A stretch of 61,296 bases of DNA, filler included, from Vannella sp. (lineage: Eukaryota), in NCBI GenBank assembly GCA_023345925.1. It is 5 parts of 5 records of this genome, joined end to end, with 100 filler letters (N's around TTAATTAATTAA, not from the genome) between each part and the next. Parts side by side here need not be neighbours in the genome. Positions count along the whole stretch, not along the records: positions 46,702 to 55,061 come from JAJQQN010000660.1; 4 more parts are not named here. One strand, given 5' to 3'. Shown here piece after piece: positions 11,214 to 57,828 of this stretch (position 1 is its first letter; each line of letters opens with the position of its first letter). The position numbers and the translations under genes were made by a program. Under the pieces are notes generated by a model, which had not been told where the DNA came from, ran no database searches, and was given only the letters and a program-made list of their open reading frames with translations.

Positions 11214-11313
11214 NNNNNNNNNNNNNNNNNNNNNNNNNNNNNNNNNNNNNNNNNNNNTTAATTAATTAANNNNNNNNNNNNNNNNNNNNNNNNNNNNNNN
11301 NNNNNNNNNNNNN
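11214..11313. other. Artificial contig spacer N44-TTAATTAATTAA-N44
   Basis: The identical 100-bp spacer, which has stops in all six frames, recurs four times. Confidence 0.95.
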
Positions 11314-19420: not shown

Positions 19421-19750
19421 CAATCCCATTTTTTGGCGAGTGGACCTCTCAAAAGGCCTCAGGCGGTGAAAGGATGCAAGCTTCCTCAAGTGCAGACAAA
19501 AAGATGAATTCCGAAAGGCCAAACGGACTGTCAACAGTTGTCCTCAGCTTGTGAAAGCTTCTTCAACAGTTGGACGATCGATAAACGGACACGCTATCAG
19601 CAGAAAGCCAAAGGGAGCAGAGAGTTGGTCCGGGAGCAGAGTTGGTTGCCCTAAGCGAGGTTAAAACTGACCAATCAGCAATCAGGGTGTCCAAAGAAAA
19701 GGGAACCACTAAACCCTCAATTAAACAGCGAGAGTCGAATCCACTTTGCC

Positions 19751-22700
19751 ATGGCTTCCTTTGAGGAGCCGGAAAGGATGGATGATGGCCCTCCAGACGA
19801 TGTGGTAGTGAAGATCATCCAGCTAGTTGGTAAGCGTTCTAGGCAGCAAACTGCAGATGAGACACCGACAAAGAGAAGGAAGGAAGAAAGCGCCTCGCGA
19901 TTGGGGGAAGGGTTAGGAAAAGCGTTGAACCTTCATTTTTCGCGGTCCACGAGCATGAGTGGGGGTGGAGACGTTCGTGATACTCTGATTCGCGATGTCA
20001 TACCTCATGCTACTGCTATTGTTACTGTCAAGAAGGAGGATTCCATCGCCACGGCTCTCAAGGCACTGAAAGACCACCAGATCTCTGCTGTTGGAGTGAC
20101 GGACGCGGGGGGCGACTGCTTTGTTGGTGTATTGACTGCGTTTGATTTGATGACCTATGTCTCCTTCTCCTCTTACAAGGAGGATCTTCCTGATGAGGTG
20201 AAGGCTGTCAAGTCTCTCGAAACCGCTGTTGGCGGTGTGGTTGGCGTCTTCCATGCGGAGGACAAGAAGATCTGGGACTTTGACGAGGACCTCCCTGTCG
20301 TACAGCTTCTTGAGCCCATGAGCAAAGGCGTTCATCGCGCTGTTGTTGTGACTGCGGATGGCCGCTTCAAGCTCATTTCCCAGTTGGACGTTGTCCGCTT
20401 CGGTTACGAGAAGAAGGAGGAGTTCAGTGATTGCTTGACTACTCTCGAGGAGCTTGGCTTGGGCAACCCTTCTGTATCAAAGGTGTACAGCGTCTCCTCT
20501 GACCAGACGGCTCTACGAGCCTTCCGTACGATGCAGATGGAAGGATTCACTGCTCTCCCTGTGGTGGACAGCGAAACCGGTGTTCTAATCTCCACCATCT
20601 CAGCAGAGGATGTCCGCGAACTGTCCCCTTCCAATCTTGACGTTGTTCGTTCGACTGTTGTGGACTTCCTCAAGACCATTCATGGCTCAGTCCCTGCCCC
20701 TCTCTCGGTCACACGCAGCTCTCTTCTAGGAGACGTGATGAAGCAGATGGTCAGTGAGCGCCACAAGCATGCTTGGGTGGTGGACGACAACAACCGTCCT
20801 GTATCGACTGTGAGCTTCTCTGATGTCATCAATCGAATGCAAGGCATCAACGAAGATCTTCAGAGCCGTGCACTGGCTGTCTACGGTCGAGGAGCGATGA
20901 AGAAGCTCTTCGAGACCAAAGTGCTCATCTCAGGGCTCAACGGACTCGGTGCTGAGATCGCTAAGAACGTTATTCTGGCTAACGTCAACTCTGTGACCCT
21001 CCACGATACCAAAGACACCGCGTTCGCTGATCTCAGTTCCCATTTCTACCTTGGTGAAGCTGACGTTGGCACTAACCGGGCTGCAGCTTGTCTCAACAAG
21101 CTTGCAGAGTTAAACCCTTCAGTCCGTGTGACTGCTGTCTCGGGGGAGACCCTTTCAGAGGAGATTCTTGCTCAGCACAACATTGTTGTCCTCTTGGAGA
21201 CCTCAAACAAGGAGTCTATCCGCATCAACGCCTTCTGCCGTACCAACGGCATCTCTTTCATCAAGACAGACGTGAAGGGATTGGCGGGATCGGTCTTCTG
21301 TGACTTTGGACCCAACTTTACTGTCCACGACGTGACAGGCGAGCAACCTCAGACTGCCATTGTTCAGGAGATCAACGCTGATGGCCGTGTGCAGTGCGTG
21401 AACGAGGAGATGCTTACCTTGCAAGATGGGGACATTGTCACCTTCGCTGAGGTCAAAGGCATGACAGAGCTCAACCAGGGAGAGTACACAATCGACCGTG
21501 TCACTCCTTATTCCTTCTATATCAAGGATGCCGGGCAGCTTTCTCAGTATGAGATTGGTGGCATTGTCACCCAGGTCAAGAAGCCCAAGGTCATTGAATT
21601 TGAGTCACTTGAAGCTCGTTTGAAGGGATGCGACATGCAAGAGCCTCCAGATTTCTCCAAGTGGGACCGTCACCACGTCTTGCACGCGGCCTTCCTAGCG
21701 TTGGATGCCTTCCAGGAGGCCAATGGTCGCAATCCCCGTCCAGCAAACAAGGAGGATGCTGAATCGTTTACCAAGCTATGGAGCGAGATTAACAGTACCT
21801 GTGAGGCTCAATCGGACTTGGAATCTTGCAAGAAGGTGCTTGAACAGTTTGCTCATGGAGCAGGGACTGTCATCAATCCCATGGCTGCGGCCTTTGGTGG
21901 AATTGTGGGACAGGAAGTGACCAAAGCCGCTACTGGAAAGTTCCACCCCATCAACCAGTGGTTCTATCTGGATGCTTTTGAGGTTCTCCCTGACGAGTTG
22001 CTTCCTGAAGAGGAGTATGCATCTCAAGGCAGCCGATACGATGCCCAAATTCAGCTCCTCGGAAAGAGTTTCCAAGAGAAGATCAAGAACCTCCGCTACT
22101 TCCTGGTAGGCGCTGGAGCACTTGGATGTGAGTTCATGAAGAACTTTGCCATGACTGGACTTGGCTGTGGAGAGAAGGGTCAGGTTGTCATCACAGATGA
22201 CGATGTCATCGAAAAGTCCAACCTTTCCCGCCAGTTCCTCTTCAGAAACTGGCACATTCACAAGCCCAAGTCCATCTGCGCCGCAGAGAGCATCCGTGCT
22301 ATGAACCCTAGCATCAATGTTGTTGCCAAACAGGATCGAGTTTGCACTCAAACGGAAAACGTCTTTGACGTGGACTTCTGGCGTAGTCTCGATGGTGTCT
22401 GTAACGCACTCGACAACATCAAGGCCCGCTTGTACGTGGATGAGCGTTGCATCTTCTTTGAGAAGTCCCTGTTGGAGTCTGGCACTTTGGGACCCAAGTG
22501 CAACTCTCAAGTGATTATCCCTCACAAGACCCGCCATTATGGTGACCAACCTGACCAGCCTGAGAAGGAGGCTCCTGTTTGTGTGCTTCACCATTTCCCC
22601 CACAACATCCAACACTGTTTGACTTGGGGCCGCTCTGAGTTCAACGGGAACTTTGAGATTGCCCCCTCTGAAGTCAACAAGTACGTGGCAGACGCTCAGT

Positions 22701-23932
22701 ATGTCTCCACTCTTCGTGAGGCTCAGATTGCAGAGAATGACATCAAAGAGAAGTTGCAAGTCATCCATCGAGTGCTGAAGATGCCATGCAGGACCTTTGA
22801 GGATTGCGTGAAATGGGCCCGTTTGGACTTTGAAGAGAACTTCTCGAACAAGATTAAAGAGTTAATCCACAACTTCCCTGAGGACGCCAGGAACAAGAGC
22901 GGAGCGCTCTTCTGGTCTCCTCCCAAACGGTTCCCCACTCCAGTCACTTTTGATGCCAAGGATCCCATGCACATGCAGTTCATCATGGCTGGTGCCAACC
23001 TCAAGGCCAGTACATTCAACATTCCCCGTCCCCGCCAAAGCCGAAAGCCAGACTTCCTGGAGGACATTCTCTCCCGTGTTGAGGTCCCAGTCTTCGTACC
23101 CAAGTCCAAGAGGATCAAGGTCGAGGAAACAGAGGCTGACCCTGATGATGAGACCATCGAGGAGCTCCACAAGAGATTGCCTTCCGGGGAGGTCTTGAAA
23201 GATCTGGGTATGGCGCCAGAGGACTTTGAGAAGGACGACGACACCAACTTCCACATGGACTTCATTGCTGCGGCTGCTAACTTGCGCGCTCGCAACTATT
23301 CCATTGAAGAGGTGGACAAGTTGAAGGCCAAGCTAATTGCTGGTCGCATTATCCCGGCCATTGCCACAGCGACAGCGTTGGCCACTGGTTTAGTGATGCT
23401 GGAGCTCTTTAAGATGGTCAATGACCGCCCCATGGGTGACTTCTTGACCACGGGGGCGTACCGTTGCTCATCGAACAACCTGGCCCTTCCCCAGTTCTCC
23501 TTCTTCGAGCCTCTGACTCCCGTTGTGATTGAGGACCACGTAGAGAAGACCGTCCCTGATCCCATTAATCATCCTGAATACGAGGAAGAGGAGGAAGTGG
23601 TGGCTTATCCCCCCAAACACACTATTTGGGACAAGATCAATGTCAAGATTGGGTCTGAATTCACCTTGCGCGAGCTGATTGACCACTTTAAGAGCGAGCA
23701 CGGGCTCACTGTGGATATGCTGACTATGGTAGTCAGTGAGAGTAAAGCGGTCTTGGTGTACGGGACATACAACGCCAACACCCACTCCCGTCTCGATGTC
23801 AAGTTCTCGGACCTGCTGCGAGAGCGTGTTGGAAAGGAGTTGTCTGACATGCATTACTACGTTCCTGAGATCCTCTTCTCCAAGGATGGAGACACTGTGG
23901 CCAGTCCTCCTGTCGTGATCCACATCAAGTAG
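19751..23932 (+). CDS. UBA1: Ubiquitin-activating enzyme E1 (UBA1-type) with four N-terminal CBS repeats
   Basis: One uninterrupted 1393-aa ORF. CBS repeats ~19990-20836, then INEDLQSR, GLNGLGAEIAKN, GAGALGCE, IEKSNLSRQFLFR, catalytic PVCVLHHFP, FEKDDDTNFHMDF, IAGRIIPAIAT and a C-terminal UFD. Confidence 0.95.
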   Translation: MASFEEPERMDDGPPDDVVVKIIQLVGKRSRQQTADETPTKRRKEESASRLGEGLGKALNLHFSRSTSMSGGGDVRDTLIRDVIPHATAIVTVKKEDSIATALKALKDHQISAVGVTDAGGDCFVGVLTAFDLMTYVSFSSYKEDLPDEVKAVKSLETAVGGVVGVFHAEDKKIWDFDEDLPVVQLLEPMSKGVHRAVVVTADGRFKLISQLDVVRFGYEKKEEFSDCLTTLEELGLGNPSVSKVYSVSSDQTALRAFRTMQMEGFTALPVVDSETGVLISTISAEDVRELSPSNLDVVRSTVVDFLKTIHGSVPAPLSVTRSSLLGDVMKQMVSERHKHAWVVDDNNRPVSTVSFSDVINRMQGINEDLQSRALAVYGRGAMKKLFETKVLISGLNGLGAEIAKNVILANVNSVTLHDTKDTAFADLSSHFYLGEADVGTNRAAACLNKLAELNPSVRVTAVSGETLSEEILAQHNIVVLLETSNKESIRINAFCRTNGISFIKTDVKGLAGSVFCDFGPNFTVHDVTGEQPQTAIVQEINADGRVQCVNEEMLTLQDGDIVTFAEVKGMTELNQGEYTIDRVTPYSFYIKDAGQLSQYEIGGIVTQVKKPKVIEFESLEARLKGCDMQEPPDFSKWDRHHVLHAAFLALDAFQEANGRNPRPANKEDAESFTKLWSEINSTCEAQSDLESCKKVLEQFAHGAGTVINPMAAAFGGIVGQEVTKAATGKFHPINQWFYLDAFEVLPDELLPEEEYASQGSRYDAQIQLLGKSFQEKIKNLRYFLVGAGALGCEFMKNFAMTGLGCGEKGQVVITDDDVIEKSNLSRQFLFRNWHIHKPKSICAAESIRAMNPSINVVAKQDRVCTQTENVFDVDFWRSLDGVCNALDNIKARLYVDERCIFFEKSLLESGTLGPKCNSQVIIPHKTRHYGDQPDQPEKEAPVCVLHHFPHNIQHCLTWGRSEFNGNFEIAPSEVNKYVADAQYVSTLREAQIAENDIKEKLQVIHRVLKMPCRTFEDCVKWARLDFEENFSNKIKELIHNFPEDARNKSGALFWSPPKRFPTPVTFDAKDPMHMQFIMAGANLKASTFNIPRPRQSRKPDFLEDILSRVEVPVFVPKSKRIKVEETEADPDDETIEELHKRLPSGEVLKDLGMAPEDFEKDDDTNFHMDFIAAAANLRARNYSIEEVDKLKAKLIAGRIIPAIATATALATGLVMLELFKMVNDRPMGDFLTTGAYRCSSNNLALPQFSFFEPLTPVVIEDHVEKTVPDPINHPEYEEEEEVVAYPPKHTIWDKINVKIGSEFTLRELIDHFKSEHGLTVDMLTMVVSESKAVLVYGTYNANTHSRLDVKFSDLLRERVGKELSDMHYYVPEILFSKDGDTVASPPVVIHIK

Positions 23933-25238: not shown

Positions 25239-27765
25239 CAGGGATGGTTAAGAATATGAATTAGCTAAAAGCTTAATCCCTTATGGCTTTGGGTAGTAGC
25301 TGTAAAAACCCAAGTTTTTAGAATTGGGTTTTTAAGAATTATGGCTTAAGCCGTAGCTTTTAGCTTTATGGCGAGCCGCGGCTCTTCGCGTAGACAGAGG
25401 CCTTCAACGCCTTATGAGAGACCTCAGGGATCCAACGAAGGGATGGCGACATCCACAGAAGACTCAAACGAACTTGAACCAGCTACTAACACAGGAAGGG
25501 TTCGCCGGAAGACGTGTTGGGCCTGGGGTGAACTTGTTCAGTCTGAATCAGTCTACAAGTGCAGCTCTTGCAACCACAAGGGTTGGAATCCACTCAAGTT
25601 CAAGATAGGAAACTTCAAGACCCATTTTACCACGCGACATCCTCAACTATGCGTGGAACGGGGCTACGTCGTTGCTGCATCGGCCAGCATCACCTCCAAC
25701 GATCAGCTTGATCTTTCTGTGAGTAGATGGGTACTTACCAGCAACCGTCCGTTTTCAATCGTGGATGATCCAGGCTTCAGGAGCATCATCCAAGGTCTGA
25801 GTCCTTCTCTACAGCTCCTTCACCGTCAGCAATTGATGAAGAGTTACCTCCCCCGCTTTTCTATCGCTCTGAAAGATAAAGTAAGTGCAGAGAATAGTAT
25901 CTCAGTCTCTGCTACTTACTTTTACGCAGATCCAGGATCTATTCAGAGACTCTGGTATGAAGTTCTTTTCGATGACATCAGATGGTTGGAAGTCTCCATT
26001 GAGCTCTAGTGCTCATTGGTACAGCATTACCATTCATTGGATTGACAAAGACTTCAGACTCCAGTTCGTTTTATTCGATCTTTACGATGCGGAGCTTCAC
26101 TCAACAGCCGACAACATTCTGAAGCAGTGGAATATCCATCTGCAACCTCTCGTTGAAAAGTATTCACCATTTGGAATTGTGACCGATGGTGAGGCTGCTA
26201 CTCAAAGTGCTCGCGCCACTCTGTGTTCTACTTTAGACATGAAACCTATCTGGTGCGTTTGCCACCGATTGAATCTGGCTTCGAAGTACATTGTCAAGAT
26301 TGAAGAAGTGGAAGATGCATACAAGAAATGCAAGGCGATCTCGAAATTCGCTAAGAAGAGCACTGTTTTCGGTGGGATCTTTCAGATGCTCAAGTCAAAA
26401 AAGACTATCCAACTGTGTTCTGCCTCTGAAATAAGGTGGAACTCTTCTTACAACATGTTTAAATCATTCTTGGACAACAAAGATGCTCTGGAACAGGCTT
26501 GTAACCAGACAGGCTACCCGAACCGACAGAGACTCAATTCTCGGGATTGGTCCTTTATTGAGATGGCCAGCGAAGTTTTGCTCATTATCAAGCCTGAGAT
26601 CAAGTTTTTTCAAGCTGAGAAAGTCCCAACTATCTCCTCTGTGCTGCCTCGTCTGCTTACCCTGAAGGAAATCATCACTGGTCTCTCTCCTCGCAACAAG
26701 ATTGCGCTTGATGCTGTTGTCGAGCTCGAAGACTACTTTCCATGGCTCTCTTCCTGGGATCCTCCTTCGGAAGAATTCTCAATCTTGAGCTCAGCCTCAT
26801 TCCTGGATCCCCGGTACAAAGACTTCTTCTTTATTGAAGATCAAGGAAAGAGAGATCAGCTTGTGTCCAGCATCAGACCTGCAATCGAACAGATTCTTTT
26901 GCCAGGAGGACCTGCTGTTGAAGCAGACCATTCGAGGGAATCTCCAGTGACAATCCAAATGCGGCGAAGGTCTCTGGCTGCCGAGCGTCAGGGAGAGATC
27001 GAGAGGTACCTTGCACTGGCCAGGGATCCAGAGGTAACCGAAGATCCTCTGAACTTCTGGAGGTCGGTCAGACCAAACGACTTTCCAACACTTTCTCAGG
27101 TTGCGAGAAGAGTATTGTGCTTACCTGCATCTTCTACAACTTCTGAGCGTGCTTTCTCTTCAGCAGGCTCCGTGCTGTCGAAAAGTCGCACCAGACTCTC
27201 AAGCGTGTCTTCTCGTTCTGCATGTTTGATTAATGTCAACAGGAGTTTGATCTCTTCCATTACTGAGCTGCCCAATCTCTCTAATGATCAGATCACAGCA
27301 TTCTTCAGAGGAGAAGAGGAGGGAGATGGAGAAGAGGGAGAAGAAGGAGAAGAAGGGGATGATGAACCCAATGAATGAGATTAATAAAGCCACACTGACT
27401 AATGCTAAGAGAGAGGGAAGCATACAATGTGTTAAAAAGTGAGGTGTCCTCCCACAGATGGAATGATCCACCGCTCGCGTGCGCATCGCTATGATTCCTC
27501 GATCTTTCTGCCAGATTGGATCTATGCCCTGAAACAGATGAAAGACTTTCACAAGAACGCAACAAACACGACCACAGGAGACTTTCAGCGAACAAAAGTT
27601 GTTATTGCCTACCGACCTCGAACCCACGACCTTCCAATCGGAACGCCAGGAGAGTGTGGTCAGACCACATTCCCCCAGAAAAAATTGCCGTGAGCCTGTT
27701 TCGTGTTTAATTTGAACAACCCAATCCCCTTACGGCTTTTAAAAACTTAGCCATAACCATCCCTG
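25239..27765 (+). mobile_element. hAT-superfamily DNA transposon, apparently full length (~2.5 kb)
   Basis: Perfect 12-bp TIRs CAGGGATGGTTA (25239-25250) and TAACCATCCCTG (27754-27765) flank a transposase gene. The right flank is the gap, so the TSD cannot be checked. Confidence 0.92.
25368..27378 (+). CDS. hAT transposase (~653 aa, one intron 25881-25929)
   Basis: BED-like finger (W..CSSC..HFTTRH), catalytic D (TSDGW), D (VTDG), CxxH (CVCH), RWNS, E (SERAFS) and C-terminal dimerisation motif (DPLNFW..FPTLSQVAR). Splicing restores one frame. Confidence 0.93.
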
Positions 27766-27865
27766 NNNNNNNNNNNNNNNNNNNNNNNNNNNNNNNNNNN
27801 NNNNNNNNNTTAATTAATTAANNNNNNNNNNNNNNNNNNNNNNNNNNNNNNNNNNNNNNNNNNNN
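27766..27865. other. Artificial contig spacer
   Basis: N44-TTAATTAATTAA-N44. Confidence 0.95.
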
Positions 27866-46601: not shown

Positions 46602-46701
46602 NNNNNNNNNNNNNNNNNNNNNNNNNNNNNNNNNNNNNNNNNNNNTTAATTAATTAANNNNNNNNNNNNNNNNNNNNNNNNNNNNNNNNNNNNNNNNNNN
46701 N
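46602..46701. other. Artificial contig spacer
   Basis: N44-TTAATTAATTAA-N44. Confidence 0.95.
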
Positions 46702-48983: not shown

Positions 48984-49589
48984 ATGAAGGCGGGTGGGCT
49001 TGTTGGAGCGGCGGGGTTTAGTGTTTGCGTGTTGGCCTGGAGCTTTCAGATGGTATCGGTGAAGCCGTTGGGGATAACAAGTCAACTGGTGGAAGATGTA
49101 GCTCTTTGTGCTCATGCGGAGGGGTGGGAAGGGGCGTTGCCGCTGGTGCTTCGGTTCTTTGTAGTGTTGATTGCTCATGTCGTGGCTTTTGGTGGTGTTC
49201 GCGGGGCTTTCTTTCATCTGTTTCCTCCTGGGAGCTTCTTTGATGTCATGCAAGGCTGTGAGATACTCCCTGTCCTCAATCCAGTCCTGGATCTGACCAA
49301 AAGTGTCATCCTCCTCCTTGAATCGTCACACAGCACAGCCACGATGCTTCACTGGCGATTCCTTCACACATGGCTAGACTCTGTCCATCGGATAACCTTT
49401 GGATGCACTCTCTTCCTCCTCCTCTTCTCTGTCATCCTGATGGGACTTTCCTTCACTTTCCCTCCCCGAGCCCCCGAGCCCGAGCCCGAGCCCAACCCGG
49501 AGTCAGACACATGGAAAGTAGCCAAGCCATCAACCCACATCCCCGCCACGCCTCCAGAGAGCTCTGAACCAAGCGTTACAGAAGAATGA
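48984..49589 (+). CDS. Hypothetical multi-pass membrane protein
   Basis: 201-aa ORF with ~3 hydrophobic segments and a PE-repeat tail; TCATT just upstream of the ATG. Confidence 0.5.
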   Translation: MKAGGLVGAAGFSVCVLAWSFQMVSVKPLGITSQLVEDVALCAHAEGWEGALPLVLRFFVVLIAHVVAFGGVRGAFFHLFPPGSFFDVMQGCEILPVLNPVLDLTKSVILLLESSHSTATMLHWRFLHTWLDSVHRITFGCTLFLLLFSVILMGLSFTFPPRAPEPEPEPNPESDTWKVAKPSTHIPATPPESSEPSVTEE

Positions 49590-49747
49590 AAGACCTTGAA
49601 GCGTCTCTCTCCCGTCTCTCTCTCACAAGGAGGCTGTCACTCAGACAGACACAAGACCAAGGAGTGGTTCTAACGTGTAGATACCCAAAAGGACTGCCAA
49701 GGGAAGGGGATTCCGGAAAGTTTCTCATTTGCGAGAGGACCCGACGG

Positions 49748-51262
49748 ATGAGCCACTTCTCCAAGGACTTTGATCAGGAGGCCAATTGGGAAGCTCAGAG
49801 TGATGAACTAGATGCTTTGGGAGCTATTTATGAGGAGGAAATGGCGGAGAGGAGTGGTGTGGACGTGCTGGGGGAGTCTCGGAGTGTCCTACTGATCCTT
49901 CCGGTTCTTTTACCAGAGGAGGGCGCTATCTTCCGTGTTTGTGATGTGAATGATGGTCAAAGACAGTTTTTGGGATGCTATACCTTCTTTCATGTGCACC
50001 CCATCACGATTACCTTCACTTTACCTCCAAAGTATCCCGATCCCTCTCCACCTCTGTTCACTGTGTCCACTGCTTGGCTTGGAAGCCCGCACTTTGATCT
50101 TCTGTGTCGAGAATTAGATAGGTTATGCGAAGAAGGAGCTGGAAGTCCTCTCCTATTCACACTTTGTGACTGGGTGCAACATGACTTTGTTCCTTTCCTC
50201 CTTTCTGCCTTCCCAGAGGGCATCGAAATCACACAAAACACATCAGATGGAGATACAAGAGGTATTCAACAATGTTATTCTTTGGCAGACACTGCAATGA
50301 GCTTACTCCAGTACAATCGAGAGACTTCTGAATTCGTATTCCGGCAATCTTCGCAGACTTGCACCCTTTGCTACGAAGAGCGTGACGGCAATCTCTTTGA
50401 TTTCCTTCCGTGCTGCCGACAGCCATTTTGCCGAGAATGCATTCAAGATATGTGCTCTCGGCTGACCAAGTCGGGAAGTGTTGAGCTTCTGATGTGCCCT
50501 TCTTGCACCAAGGACTTTCACCCTAATTTCCTTCAGCAATATCTCAGCAAAGAAGAAATGGAACGATGGGACCGCTTGACGCTCCAAAGGTCGCTAGATG
50601 CAATGGAAGACGTCCATTATTGCCCGCGTTGTGATGCGTTGGCAATCTCTGACGAAGATCACTTTGCGCAGTGCCAGAAGTGTCATTACACCTTCTGTAG
50701 TAGATGCCGCGATAATTATCACAATAACTCATCCTGTGATGAGATGGCCGCTGTGATGAAGCAAGTTTCTCATTCTCAGGATCGAGAAAACGAGTTAAAG
50801 AGCCTTCGAGCCATCTTACGACAAGCCCGTAAGTGTCCGAAATGCAATATCTACATCAGCAGGGCTTCTGGGTGCAATAAGATGACTTGCACGCAGTGCA
50901 AAGGCTTCTTTTGCTATTCTTGTGGGAAAGCTATTAACGGCTACGACCACTTTAACACAACTCCAGGCCCGGGAATGGGTCGGAGTGGCGGTTGTAAGGT
51001 GTTTGATGAAGTCACAGACGATATGCTGTACTTCTACGCGAATGTCCAGGCCAACCAAAACCCCGAAGGCGATGGAATGAGGCCTTTCGACTTCAATCGA
51101 CGGAAGCCCTGCCCCTTTTGCGGGCAGCACAACTATAAGCAAGGGCGTAACAACGATATCTGTTGCTACCACTGCCGCAACCACTATTGCTTCCAATGCA
51201 CTGCCAAGATCAAAGGAACCTCCCACTTCAACACTTCCACTTGTTTGCAACACTCCAACTGA
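49748..51262 (+). CDS. RWD + RBR E3 ubiquitin ligase (RNF14-like)
   Basis: EAQSDELDALGAIY, LPPKYP (RWD), RING1, IBR, RING2 (CPKC..ISRASGCNKMTC) and an extra Cys cluster. The ORF opens at 49586, but ATG 49748 fits the family start and has TCATTT upstream. Confidence 0.9.
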   Translation: MSHFSKDFDQEANWEAQSDELDALGAIYEEEMAERSGVDVLGESRSVLLILPVLLPEEGAIFRVCDVNDGQRQFLGCYTFFHVHPITITFTLPPKYPDPSPPLFTVSTAWLGSPHFDLLCRELDRLCEEGAGSPLLFTLCDWVQHDFVPFLLSAFPEGIEITQNTSDGDTRGIQQCYSLADTAMSLLQYNRETSEFVFRQSSQTCTLCYEERDGNLFDFLPCCRQPFCRECIQDMCSRLTKSGSVELLMCPSCTKDFHPNFLQQYLSKEEMERWDRLTLQRSLDAMEDVHYCPRCDALAISDEDHFAQCQKCHYTFCSRCRDNYHNNSSCDEMAAVMKQVSHSQDRENELKSLRAILRQARKCPKCNIYISRASGCNKMTCTQCKGFFCYSCGKAINGYDHFNTTPGPGMGRSGGCKVFDEVTDDMLYFYANVQANQNPEGDGMRPFDFNRRKPCPFCGQHNYKQGRNNDICCYHCRNHYCFQCTAKIKGTSHFNTSTCLQHSN

Positions 51263-51361
51263 CCTCCCAATCATAACAAATTAACTTTATTCAGTTTTAA
51301 CATTATTAGGAAAGTTCTGATTGTTTTGGGCGTTTTCGTCATTCTTTGTCCTCCCTCTCCG

Positions 51362-51634
51362 ATGGCTGATCTCGAGACCCGTTTCAAGAAGGCTGTTGAG
51401 TTCGTGAGAAACAGCCCTGCTGGTGACTCTTCTACCGACCACAAGCTGTCTGTCTACGCTTTGTACAAGCAGGCCAACGAGGGTGATGTGACAGGCGCCC
51501 AGCCTTGGGCTGTCCAACTAGAGGCTCGTGCCAAGTGGGATGCCTGGAAGAAGGTCGAGGGAACCTCAAAGGAGGCTGCCATGGAGCAATACATTGAGAA
51601 GCTCAACGCGACTAACCCTGATTGGGAGAAGTAA
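51362..51634 (+). CDS. ACBP: Acyl-CoA-binding protein
   Basis: FKKAVEFV, KLSVYALYKQA.EGD, RAKWDAW and AMEQYI. Confidence 0.95.
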   Translation: MADLETRFKKAVEFVRNSPAGDSSTDHKLSVYALYKQANEGDVTGAQPWAVQLEARAKWDAWKKVEGTSKEAAMEQYIEKLNATNPDWEK

Positions 51635-52026: not shown

Positions 52027-55000
52027 TTAGCAGGTGAGGAGATCCGGCATCGAGAGGGACTGGGAGCCTTTCACTTTGGCTTTGGTGTCAGGGAAGTAGA
52101 CGACTTCAGGTTCAATGTGCCCGTCCGCTTCCATGCGGATGGGGTAGTTCATGAGATGGCTGTGTTCCATGCTCTCCACCGTGTCCGAGGTAAAGCGGGC
52201 CCAGTTTCGTCGCCCAATGTCCGCAATCTGCCCCCACAATGAGTCGCTCGCCTTCCCAAGCGCCCTGAACGTACCAGATGAGAGCAATTGAGAGTGTTGG
52301 GAGTCAGGAACTCTGGATAGGACTGGCCAGCATGCTCACTCCAAAGAGACATGCGGAACCGATGAACGTCCCCTCGTGGCTGAGCAGCGGCCAGATAACC
52401 GGGTTGCCAGCACTCTACCGCTATCTCAGAGTCGCGGTCACCTGCCATAGAGCGTTCATTGATGTTAGCACTCCCCAGAATGATGTAGTTGTCGTCAATG
52501 ATCATCATCTTCGAGTGAACGTAGATCGGCACCCGCCGGGAGACCTTTAACGCAGCCTCTCTGGACTTGGCGGGAGGATCAGACTTCTCTGCGCGGTTGT
52601 GAATCAACTCCTCGCGTTGTCCAACACAGAGGAACTTGAGATAGTCGTTGGGGAAGGTGCAGAGCCCGGCCATTTTGATGGCGGTGTCGATGTGACGGTA
52701 CATCATAGCCATGGTGTTCCACTGCCAGCATAGTTGTTCTTGGATGGCAGCATCAAGAGGGTATCCTTCAGGGTAGAGAGGAATAAGGATGTAAGCCATC
52801 ACTGGGTTCACAGGGTCAGCCACAATGCTCTTGCCAATGCGGTCGGCAATCTCAAAGGGAATGATGTTGACACATCCAGTGTTGCGGTCGCTAATCCAAT
52901 GCTTCGAGCCGCCCATAAAGTATTGATTCTCCATGTAAATGAAGCGGTTGGCCTTGCGAATGGCCTCCACATAGTGGTACTGAATACTATTATCCACCAC
53001 TGGGATGTCCGCCGAGAAAGGATCAATGGAACGGCACAAACGCGTGCACCACGAGTTGGACTCGTGAATTTCCTCTTCCATCTCGCTGATGAACTCAGAG
53101 CCGAGATGGTACAAGTGCGTTTTGGCTTGCTTGCGCCAACGCTGCTCAAAGTTGGTCATGATGTCACGTGCAATTGGTCCTTCCAGCTTGCTGTGGATGT
53201 CATGCCAAGGCTCTCGAGGTCCGAAGCATTGCTTGAGAGCCCAGCCATGAAGGAAGTCAGTTTGATGCTCAGCATCTAATGTCTTGAAGAGCGGGTGGCT
53301 TGGAGTGTCCCAACGGCCATACGTCATGTCAAGTCCCCCCACAAAGGCGATGATTCTCCGTCGGCCCACATCCTTCTTCGGCTCTGAGATGTGAACGGAC
53401 TGAACACCAGCAACTAGCGCATCCTCTGGCTTAGGACACACATCTACACCCAAAGGAGGACGGCGAAGGCAATAGTAGCCGGTTTGCTCCTCATCAGGAG
53501 GCAACTTGTACCCATCTTGGACACAGAAGCAGCCTGTTATCAGCCCGCTGGTGCGGGGAGTGATAGAGAAGATGCTCATCTTAGGACCCCCAATGGAAGC
53601 GCGAACCTTGGCCTTGTTCGTCCACAGAGCCTTGTGGTTCTCTTCAAACACGGCGTGCCCTTGCTCCAGAGCGTCACGGTGGACGCATCGGATCAGGTTT
53701 GTAGGTGGCTGAACAGCAGAGCTTGTGGCAACAAAGCCCAGTGCCTCATAGCCCTCTGGCGCGATGGGCTTCCAGAAGACGATGGAGCCTGACTTGGAGG
53801 AGAACACTCCCGTTGGCGGCCACACTTGCGTGTAGCCTGTAGGACATGCGAGAATAGGAACTTCTCCTGGAACGTACGGAGGCTCTTGAACGACGAGCAC
53901 CTTGGTAAGGCGACCAGGCTCGGAAGAGCAGCTGCGTTCGACAAAGTCTCCGAGGATGTGCCATCCCTGTGGTGGACAGGGGCGGAAGACTGCCAAGCTG
54001 TTGGGTTGGCACCAGGTTGCATTGTCGTCCCAGATCTTAGCAAAGGTGTGCTCGCACGTCATGAAGGAAGTGATGGCGAAGCGAGCTCCGTTCGCGTTCT
54101 TCCGTCCGTAGTCGTTCTCAGTGACGGAAGTGGGAGCCAGGAAGGACATGTAGGAAGGAGCGGAGCTCATGGATGCGTAGATCTCGGTAGTCAGAGCGGG
54201 GGCATCGACAATGATAGACTTTTGGTGATGAGTCCAAAGGAACTGGTTGTCCTTGGTAGAGCCAGTGCGGTACGACAGACAGCACTCCACCCCTGTTCCA
54301 GAAAAGTATTTCTATTGCCAAAGGGGTGTCAGAAGACCCTCTCCAAAGGAGAACGAGGGAGAAGAAGCGTACTTTGGTCTCCTCATCGAAGGTGCACATA
54401 ACACCAGCGGTTTGGAAGCCTGCAATGTTGACAGAAAGAGCTTCGTCCCATACATGAAGCATCACACGGACTCCCTGGGACGCCTTGTAGCGGAGAAGCT
54501 CGCCAATTGTCATCTTCCCCGCGGGAGGTTGGTCCGTCGTTCCTTTGCATTGTTAGGTCCAGTTCGCATCTCTGGTGGTAGAGGGAGACATACCTTCTTC
54601 CTCAAAGATCGGTTTGCGGCGAAGGAGGCTGATCTTCGTGTCTACCGACCAGCCTGTGATGTAGACGAAGCGCTTGGCATCAAGAATGGCCCTGGGTGAT
54701 GTTAGAATGTAATGGTATACTGGTAGGGGCACGTACTGGTACATCTGCTCGAAGCAGTTGGGAGGGACATAGGAGGTATCGGGCATTCCGTTGTCTTTGA
54801 TGGAAAAGGGGGGATAGTCCCCTTCACAGTGGGCATCTTGGAATAGGGTGACTCTGCATCCTTTGCGCACCTCAAACTGGCTTGGCGTCAGGTCCTCTAG
54901 CTCGTAGTACTTGACCGTGGTCGTCACAGCGCTCGCCACATTGCCTGCCGTCTTCCCCCGCCATCACTCCTTCATCTTCTTCACGCTTCACCCTCACTGA

Positions 55001-55037
55001 CCTTGCCAATCACAGAGCGAAGTCCTTTCAGAGCCAT
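52027..55037 (-). CDS. Phospholipase D (plant PLD-like, two HKD motifs) with an inserted Vps62/DUF946-like domain
   Basis: GCRVTLFQDAH, VYITGWS, HHQKSIIVD, AFVGGLD..GRWD, PREPWHD.H, YMENQYF, IYVHSKMMIIDD..GSANINERS..RDSEIA. The 5' end is close to the gap, so the start is tentative. Confidence 0.92.
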
Positions 55038-55061: not shown

Positions 55062-55161
55062 NNNNNNNNNNNNNNNNNNNNNNNNNNNNNNNNNNNNNNN
55101 NNNNNTTAATTAATTAANNNNNNNNNNNNNNNNNNNNNNNNNNNNNNNNNNNNNNNNNNNN
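55062..55161. other. Artificial contig spacer
   Basis: N44-TTAATTAATTAA-N44. Confidence 0.95.
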
Positions 55162-57828
55162 CTTCAGGTTGTCACCACACTGAGCCCAAGTATTAGCTCA
55201 TTGGAGCGGCAGACTAAGAAGGTGGGGAATGACCAGATTTGCTCATCTTCCTCCTCACACTCCGACAGGAAGGGAAAGCAGAATCTCGCGATCCAGACTT
55301 CAGCAACAGAGACGATAGAGAACACCCACCGATCCACAGCTCTTCAGGAGTCGAACAGGAGGACGTGTACTGCCTCGTTGATGGTGACGAGCCGCTTCTT
55401 CCGGAGGGAGCTGGAATGACACCCATCAAGCCTGTGTTCTCCTCTTCCGTCTTTGCTGCTTATGAGGCGTCCACCTACGAGGACTTTGACACAATCGGTG
55501 AGCGGAATCCTCTGCCAAGCTTTCTCTCCTCTGGGCCTCACCCTTCCTCCTCGCTCTAGATTGGATCAGAGACTCCATCTCTGATCGTGTTAAGCGTGCG
55601 CAGGTAGACGATACTATTGCGAAGGACAAGGTAGGGAGCAAGCAATCCTTCTCCCTTTCGTCCGGGCCTCACCAGAGGGACGCGTTGTAGCCTGGCAAAG
55701 TGACCAAGTTCCTCCGCAAGCTGTACCGCCAGTTCTATCGAAGCCAGGGCTGGCTGTTAGTGACCCTCCTCGCTGTCGTCTTGGGTTTCCTCGCGGGCTT
55801 TATCGACGTTGCGGTGGACTTCCTTGCTGACACTCGCTTCGGCTACTGTCGCAAAGGTGTCTTCCTCAGTCGCAAGCTCTGCTGTCAGGAAGTGGAGGCT
55901 GGAGAGTGTCCCAACTGGGAAACTTGGGGCGAAGCCATTGGCGCAGAGTCGGAGTGGGGCATCTACATCATTAACTATGCAGTGTACATTCTCTTGGCTG
56001 GTATCTTTGCAGGCCTGGCGGCCTGGTATGTCAAGTCTCTGGCCAAATGGGCGGCTGGAAGTGGTATTCCTGAGGTGAAGACCATCTTGGGAGGCTTTGT
56101 CATCCTCAAATTCAACTCCTGGCAGACCCTCTTCGTGAAAGTCCCGGGTTTAGTGCTCTCTGTGGCATCTGGTCTCAACTTAGGAAAGGAGGGTCCCCTC
56201 GTTCATGTATCTTGCTGCGTTTGCGAGGTCGTCTCTCACGCCTTCCCAAAGTACAAAGGCAATCAGGCTAAGCTGCGCGAGATGTTCTCTGCTGCAGCTG
56301 CAGCAGGAGTTTCAGTGGCTTTTGGTGCGCCCATTGGCGGCGTTCTCTTCAGCCTGGAAGAAGTTAGTTACTACTTTCCTCACAAGACAATGTGGCGCGC
56401 CTTCTTTTGTGCTTCTGTGGCTGCGGTGACACTTCAATTGATGGATCCTTTCCACAACGGGAAGCTGATTATCTTCCAAGTGGCTTACACTCACACGTAC
56501 ATGCTTTTTGAGTTTATTCCATTCATCTTCATTGCTGTATTATCCGGCGTGCTTGGTGCGTTCTTTATTCGGATGAACCTTCATATTTGCCGCTTCCGAA
56601 GGGCTAATATTGCTGCCTGGTCAATAACGGAGGCTATTAGTGAGTTCCCTGTTGTTTATCGGTATTTATTAACATTTATAATTAGTTGTTGCGATGTCTA
56701 CGGCGTTCATTAGCTATTCTAATGACTACCTGCGTGGTGGAGCATCAGAGATCATCTCTCAATTATTTTCTCAATGTGAAGAGGGCTCAATCAGCCCTCT
56801 TTGTCATATTGACACAGCTCCCACGGAAATCACAATCCTTGTTTTTGCTACTGTCATTCGCCTTCTCTTAACTATCTTCACGTTTGGTGTGAAAGTCCCC
56901 GCCGGATTGTTCATTCCCACACTGGCCGTTGGAGCCAGTATCGGACACGCTGTCGGATTGACAATGGCGTATTGGCAGAGTCAATATCCTGGATTCTGGT
57001 TGTTTTCTGAGTGCAATTCCAGCTACTGTATTGACGCTGGTGTGTATGGATTGATTGGCTCTGCGGCTATGTTAAGTGGAGTGACTCGCATGACGGTCTC
57101 TCTCGTTGTGATTATGTTCGAGATTACTGGCGATGTCCAGTATATTGTGCCAATTATGATCGTTGTAATGGTCGCCAAGTGGGTGGGAGACATGATTTGC
57201 AAGGATTCCATCTACGAAGAGCACATTCTCTACAACGAGTATCCTTTCCTGGATAACAAAGCTTCCTACCGCTTTGATGAGGTAGCCAAGACTATCATGA
57301 AGCCAAACCTCTTTGTATTAGAGCTTCGTCCGTACACAGTGAATGTAAGTTCCCACTCTCCGAGACGTCCAACGCACTTTCTCACTCGCAGGACAGGAGC
57401 TACGCGCCCATCTCGAGAACAATCTTTATACTGGATGGCCAGTCGTGACCAAGCGATCTGAAATGTATCTTGTTGGGTATATTGCTCGCTCAGAACTCCG
57501 CCACGCGTTGGAGTTCTCATGCAAGAACAACAAAAAGATTCATGGCGATAGTCTTTGCTACTTCTCTACCAAAGTCGATGAAAGAGAGGCTTTTGTAGAT
57601 CTTCGACCTTGGATGGACTCCACTCCCACGCAAGTCACTCCGAGAACGCCAGTGAACATCATCTTTGACATGTTCAAGAAGATGGGAATGCGTTACATCC
57701 TTGTGTCTTATCGTGGCCGGCTGGCTGGCATCATCACCAAGAAAGACATGCTTCAACACATTGCAGTCAAATTCCACGGCAAATTCCGCACTTTTGTTGT
57801 GCCTGATGACGTCAAGGTCACAGAATAA
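55162..57828 (+). CDS. CLC Cl-/H+ antiporter (CLC-3/4/5 group) with C-terminal CBS domains; start uncertain
   Basis: YEDFDTID, GSGIPE, GKEGP (gating Glu), LFSLEEV (proton Glu), GLFIP and GIITKKD. Confidence 0.93.

Follow-up and report, generated by a model that had tools for sequence, protein, structure and literature searches.

A plant-type phospholipase D without a C2 domain carries a beta-tripod directly after its first HKD motif in Vannella sp.

According to the available text of PMC9550806, eukaryotic phospholipases D (PLDs) are classed by the targeting domain at their N terminus, which is either C2 or PX/PH. A locus in Vannella sp. raises the question of how a PLD that carries neither might reach its membrane, and what a folded segment might be doing inside its catalytic core. 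The locus lies in a window (the whole stretch of DNA analyzed) of 61,296 nucleotides, filler included, from assembly GCA_023345925.1. The window consists of contigs joined by N-filled linkers, and gene order across the joints (11214-11313, 27766-27865, 46602-46701, and 55062-55161; each of 100 bases, with two N runs flanking a 12-base linker) may therefore be arbitrary. The gene encodes a plant-type PLD without a C2 domain, with a beta-tripod inserted directly after its first HKD motif (HKD1).

The predicted PLD gene occupies 52027-55037 on the minus strand and comprises six exons (55037-55002, 54951-54737, 54691-54594, 54542-54373, 54311-52275, and 52227-52027) encoding 918 amino acids. All five introns are GT-AG and short (45-61 nt), and their sites match homologues that are uninterrupted there: P0012 runs through two of them, and P0002 and P0003 through the others. 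A joint (55062-55161) sits 24 nt upstream of the ATG and the frame is open between the two, so the window alone leaves room for an upstream exon; P0002 and P0003 begin at the same position, likewise without C2, and all three proteins start 47-51 residues before a QDAH motif. Neighboring plus-strand frames at 49568-51634 and 55233-57828 encode an RWD-RBR ubiquitin ligase, an acyl-CoA-binding protein (ACBP), and, beyond the joint, a CLC channel, with no evident link to PLD.

Both catalytic motifs are intact copies of HxKxxxxD on the minus strand, namely, HKD1 (H202, K204, D209; 54204..54227) and HKD2 (H772, K774, D779; 52494..52517; PLDc, 2.9e-13). The remaining catalytic core (52275..53363), which holds Ca2+-ligand equivalents and the second catalytic half, matches the plant PLDalpha structure 6kz8 by phmmer (E 1.5e-88) and is 68-82% identical to homologues, and the last exon (52027..52227) encodes the PLD_C C-terminal region (PF12357, 3e-15). 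Equivalents of the four active-site Ca2+ ligands of AtPLDalpha1, given in the accessible part of PMC11174929 as D187, H372, H406, and E722, are all intact in alignments to 6kz8. With both HKD motifs and all four equivalents preserved, we predict from sequence that the protein is an active, Ca2+-dependent enzyme. Its core resembles 6kz8 more closely than it does human PLD1/2, and the protein shares with Arabidopsis PLDalpha1 (6KZ8/6KZ9) the two HKD motifs, four Ca2+ ligands, PLD_C tail, and fold. In contrast, the Arabidopsis enzyme has a C2 domain and a short turn, where the window PLD lacks C2 and carries about 280 residues with a beta-tripod at that turn. An AlphaFold model of the full-length homologue P0003, built on a 34-row alignment (mean pLDDT, 79.5; pTM, 0.66), places both halves of the core on 6kz8 in one superposition (Z 43.6, rmsd 2.4 over 593 aligned residues at 41% identity), and the HKD pairing, which an initial annotation made from the sequence had marked for checking by AlphaFold, is intact in the model. 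The model predicts a normal two-lobed core and an independently folded tripod on disordered linkers.

The insert itself comprises 277 in-frame codons (53367..54197, minus strand) in the hairpin after HKD1, lies entirely within exon 5 (2037 nt) between HHQKSIIVDAP and RRRIIAFVGG, and matches Pfam Vps62. The initial annotation had the size right, at about 277 residues, and its ends (53366..54198) one base off. The insert contains no stop in frame against nine in each of the other minus-strand frames, and the open frame that carries it (52149-54311, minus strand) also contains HHQKSIIVD and RRRIIAFVGG. Relatives have about 14 residues here. The spacing of about 10-20 residues that the initial annotation gave for these two motifs in plant-type PLDs agrees with a median HKD1-to-return-strand gap of 14 residues in 111 fetched proteins with both motifs and with gaps of 7-20 in 78 motif pairs among the 79 metagenome loci listed, although both sets were selected for resembling the query and so give the norm rather than a frequency. 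Outliers among the 111 comprised four gaps of 286-304 residues, one of them the window gene, and two of 126 and 154 residues filled by low-complexity sequence. The latter type is seen in P0023 and P0024/P0165, which lack C2, begin with a hydrophobic segment, and carry a charged low-complexity insert of 126-154 residues in the same hairpin, indicating that the hairpin after HKD1 tolerates insertions.

It is very likely, judging from the sequence, that the insert is exonic. Contigs of run X1, which may be the source sample of the window, span both insert junctions. Strain differences inside the insert fall at third codon positions in six of seven cases, and over 111 codons compared with metagenome locus L001 the differences number 36, 35, and 64 by codon position. 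P0012, which carries the source label of a catalogue assembled from metatranscriptomes (bioRxiv 10.1101/386110, in its available text), also has insert and core in one uninterrupted sequence. An intron or an assembly chimera is largely ruled out by the conserved open frame, the third-position bias, and this transcript-derived protein. A single contig of run X2 joins 53357 to 54202 with the insert absent; its ends are not GT-AG, only 33 letters lie on one side, and its flanks are unlike the window, so that it fits another, insert-less PLD, either a paralogue or one from another organism.

The tripod occurs at the same PLD site in at least eight other sequences, one of them from the metatranscriptome catalogue, and the carriers of this layout are several protists, likely amoeboid. 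A query with the insert region returned 10 proteins among 2074 candidates, of which one was the window gene and three had the full insert at about 52% identity; further carriers came from the clusters of these proteins and from running phmmer against 1.84 billion representatives. HKD1, tripod, and return strand are all spanned in the window PLD, P0002, P0003, and P0012; HKD1 and the tripod only in P0019/P0164 and P0098; the tripod, or its last part, and the return strand in P0004, P0018/P0163, P0020, P0162, and L001 (the one of the 79 listed metagenome loci with part of the insert); and the second linker only in P0005 and P0006. P0098 and P0162 could be fragments of a single gene. Against the window protein, the tripod is 52-60% identical (four homologues), whereas the C-terminal core reaches 68-82% and the linkers 30-50%, and the six complete insert tripods are 50-65% identical to one another, with 68 invariant columns. 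A query with the tripod core only returned 1 protein among 73 candidates. In the ESM Atlas all leads fell below 0.9, and the tripod had no usable match.

What was inserted is a beta-tripod (53457..54083, minus strand). The initial annotation had called it a Vps62/DUF946 module, and the insert does match PF06101 (E 4.5e-19; 68.7 bits, cut-off 22.1), though only at profile positions 36-224 of 541 and not over the whole profile, as a full-length Vps62 protein would; the available text of PMC7613979 identifies this matched N-terminal half as a beta-tripod and the Vps62 name as the product of a spurious alignment. By sequence, the insert matches the GNIP1Aa chain 6fbm (phmmer, 5.2e-08). By fold, residues 265-481 of the P0003 model superpose on 6fbm 315-516 with Z 18.8 and rmsd 2.7 over 188 residues, followed by the C-terminal domain of PlyB (Z 10.3, rmsd 3.2 over 149). 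The modeled tripod is all-beta, with pLDDT mostly 80-97 and a dip to 60 at the third loop.

Compared with GNIP1Aa (6FBM) and PlyB, which share its fold in MACPF hosts, the insert tripod sits on a lipase, has lost the recognition signature D-X-G-S/T-G-X3-D (PMC8624791, as far as its text was available), and has a basic third loop. In a comparison of tripod loops (60 domains extracted, 10 dropped as near-duplicates or fragments), the signature was present in none of 8 insert tripods versus 26 of 42 other tripod domains. The third loop (53580..53621, minus strand), canonically the acidic DxG(S/T)GxxxD loop, has a charge of +4 in the window protein. Each of the six complete insert tripods carries +3 to +5 in this loop, whereas 41 other tripods average -0.98. 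Loop 1 of the insert tripods is mostly acidic, loop 2 of P0004 reaches -4, loops 1 and 2 usually have an aromatic residue, and net charge over the whole domain ranges from -3 to +6. Because the domain has three-fold symmetry, its three equivalent loops probably form one face. Two stretches just outside the tripod, EHxxxKxWDD and EExxxxxWxNK, are conserved and specific to the insert clade. Plant VPS13M offers a parallel, with a tripod in a loop of a lipid-handling protein and the signature likewise absent from all eight VPS13 tripods compared, albeit in a different host protein.

The tripod is joined to the core by two linkers. Linker 1 (54084..54197, minus strand) is predicted to be disordered, is 32-50% identical among homologues, and falls below pLDDT 50 at residues 215-249 of the P0003 model; between HKD1 and the first tripod strand lie 55-72 residues in four proteins and 414-437 in three, a spread that suggests a flexible tether. 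Linker 2, leading to the RRIIAFVGG strand (53364..53456, minus strand), is 29-40 residues long in homologues and also falls below pLDDT 50 (residues 487-500 of P0003). In the model the insert exits after strand 204-209 and re-enters at strand 508-516, and since the exit lies about seven residues along the strand from the catalytic His, we place it roughly 20 A away from that residue. The module is beside the active site, as had been proposed, only in sequence; in the model it sets out at the distal end of the HKD1 strand, on a disordered linker whose length varies among homologues (55-437 residues). An extra segment inside the first PLD half is also found in the human PLD1 loop, whose sequence is unrelated to the window insert. 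The peripheral domain of Pseudomonas PldA is a further precedent, again unrelated in sequence; according to the available text of PMC9550806, this domain (PD1, residues 215-441) starts about 48 residues after His167, whereas the window insert starts about 10 after the catalytic His.

The lack of C2 or PX-PH domains noted in the initial annotation was borne out. Pfam gave no match to C2, PX, or PH in the PLD ORFs scanned (C2 and PH in five window ORFs) and none to C2 in the six frames of the window or in P0002, P0003, and P0098, and C2 is absent from every full-length insert member. The N terminus has a predicted basic amphipathic helix (residues 3-20; 54928..55031, minus strand, spanning intron 1) with a hydrophobic moment of 0.445 and a charge of +3. 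The corresponding shuffle test over the first 30 residues gave p values of 0.022 for the window protein, 0.007 for P0002, and 0.021 for P0003; the helix is absent in P0098, and residues 1-38 of the P0003 model have pLDDT below 50. To judge from its sequence, this helix could be a rival membrane-targeting element to the tripod. P0040 has a similar N-terminal helix and retains a weak C2 match, suggesting that C2 once lay between helix and core and was then removed, and the insert-less relatives P0023 and P0031 have N-terminal hydrophobic segments. The PLDs of Pelomyxa (P0029), Thecamoeba (P0166), and Pellita (P0026) belong to the same 100/98 tree group as the window PLD and none has a tripod; Thecamoeba P0166 keeps C2, whereas Pelomyxa P0029 shares the short, C2-less start of the window PLD. 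C2 loss therefore happens without a tripod, and P0029, which lacks both domains, rules out tripod gain as its necessary partner.

In a tree of 34 rows computed without the insert, in which three rows had less than half their columns filled and the outgroup that had been chosen was not set apart by one branch, the nine insert-bearing rows formed one clade (93/93; 91% of bootstrap trees) nested in the group holding the Pelomyxa, Thecamoeba, and Pellita PLDs, and a quick tree of 75 rows agrees. The host is thus probably an amoebozoan itself. We infer that the ancestral enzyme combined helix, C2, and core, and that it lost C2 and acquired the tripod a single time, probably within the Amoebozoa. 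The tripod tree places seven of eight insert tripods together (100/100); neither the best tree nor any of 200 bootstrap trees included the P0098 tripod in this clade, though a single clade was not rejected (AU p 0.16). Grouping of the insert tripods with VPS13 tripods, or descent from them, was weakly rejected (AU p 0.04). A tripod also stands at the N terminus of P0076, an EF-hand/PH-type PLD of 1298 residues unrelated to the insert clade; this is a single sequence, its N-terminal 345 residues retrieving only P0076 itself among 1786 candidates, and a shared origin of its tripod with the insert tripods was not rejected (AU p 0.12). Another membrane-type context for a single tripod is P0113, which combines PH, tectonin, and a C-terminal beta-tripod.

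What, then, might the tripod do? We give about even chances to its being a tethered docking module that keeps the enzyme at anionic membrane through its basic loop, jointly with the N-terminal helix. Basic and aromatic residues of the tripod loops would bind anionic lipid head groups, the loosely tethered tripod would dock the enzyme in concert with the amphipathic helix, and docking would set the site of phosphatidic acid production. The conservation of the insert, the basic third loop in all six complete tripods, and the existence in P0076 of a second tripod-bearing PLD speak for this reading; the lost signature, the net charge of -3 to +6, the mostly acidic loop 1, and the modest helix signal speak against it, and the existence of relatives with neither C2 nor tripod shows that a C2-less PLD does not require one. 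Tripods elsewhere are described, in the accessible parts of PMC7613979, PMC10683392, and PMC8624791, as target-recognition domains in a MACPF toxin and accessory domains of the lipid-transfer protein VPS13M, and in the literature, as far as its text was available, we found no ligand reported for any eukaryotic tripod. A protein partner such as an adaptor, GTPase, or membrane receptor could instead be what the tripod binds, recruiting or regulating the enzyme while helix and core contact the lipid. The fold match to the PlyB C-terminal domain, which binds a partner protein, points in this direction, as do the clade-specific conserved EHxxxKxWDD and EExxxxxWxNK just outside the tripod and the amphipathic helix predicted in three full-length members. 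Toxin tripods are moreover described as receptor-recognition domains and possible protein binders in the available portions of PMC7613979 and PMC10683392. However, anionic lipid is at least as good a match for the conserved polybasic loop, and the neighboring genes (ACBP, RBR ligase, CLC channel) suggest no partner, and we consider partner binding unlikely, if well short of negligible.

We regard as improbable an arrangement in which the tripod packs rigidly on the core, occupying the face that C2 covers in plant PLDalpha and standing in for that domain structurally or allosterically. Such packing would accord with the C2-HKD2 contact reported as essential in AtPLDalpha1 (PMC11174929, in its accessible part), with the missing C2 in every full-length insert member, and with the fairly constant length of linker 2 (29-40 residues), but linker 1 varies from 55 to 437 residues, Pelomyxa P0029 does without both C2 and tripod, and both linkers are of low confidence in the P0003 model, where the pTM of 0.66 is close to the core's share of the chain and so would fit a mobile tripod. 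It is more improbable still, to the point of being hardly credible, that the insert has no role, whether as a passenger that the enzyme tolerates, an intron, or a chimera of the assembly: the hairpin does accept low-complexity inserts of 126-154 residues in P0023 and P0024, and the X2 contig does skip the insert, yet the frame is open across homologues at 52-60% identity, differences are biased to third positions, the transcript-derived P0012 contains the insert, and the X2 joint, with its non-GT-AG, loose ends and 33 letters on one side, fits an insert-less PLD. A broader proposal, which we put forward tentatively and with more doubt than confidence, is that the tripod joins C2 and PX/PH as a third targeting domain of PLDs and was recruited on two independent occasions, within the catalytic half of a C2-class enzyme and at the N terminus of the EF-hand/PH-class P0076. 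Eukaryotic tripods would then have exchanged the acidic loops of the toxin type for basic ones that read anionic lipids; if true, this exchange would account for the plant VPS13M tripods as well.

We conclude that this is a real, conserved PLD architecture assembled from two known folds and, apparently, undescribed. The initial annotation had not seen it described, and it proved rare, with none found in print: our literature search found no paper joining phospholipase D with Vps62 and no description of the tripod-in-PLD layout, which is not mentioned in the available text of PMC12242099, while supplementary domain tables, subscription journals, and InterPro architecture pages could list it. 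The insert clade fits neither the C2 nor the PX/PH class and has its folded domain inside the first catalytic half. InterPro has about 6000 sequences with a beta-tripod, among them plant VPS13M, for whose tripods a role is only conjectured according to the accessible text of PMC10683392; a single-tripod enzyme whose activity is simple to measure provides a direct route to the binding target of a eukaryotic tripod. Importance is limited by both parts being known folds and the carriers being protists.

Elsewhere in the window, a single open frame of 1425 codons (19655-23932, plus strand) encodes three CBS-domain stretches followed, stop-free, by a complete ubiquitin-activating enzyme E1, possibly a nucleotide-sensing CBS-E1 fusion, and frames resembling a hAT-family transposase lie in a lower-GC stretch (0.447) at 25350-27378 on the plus strand.
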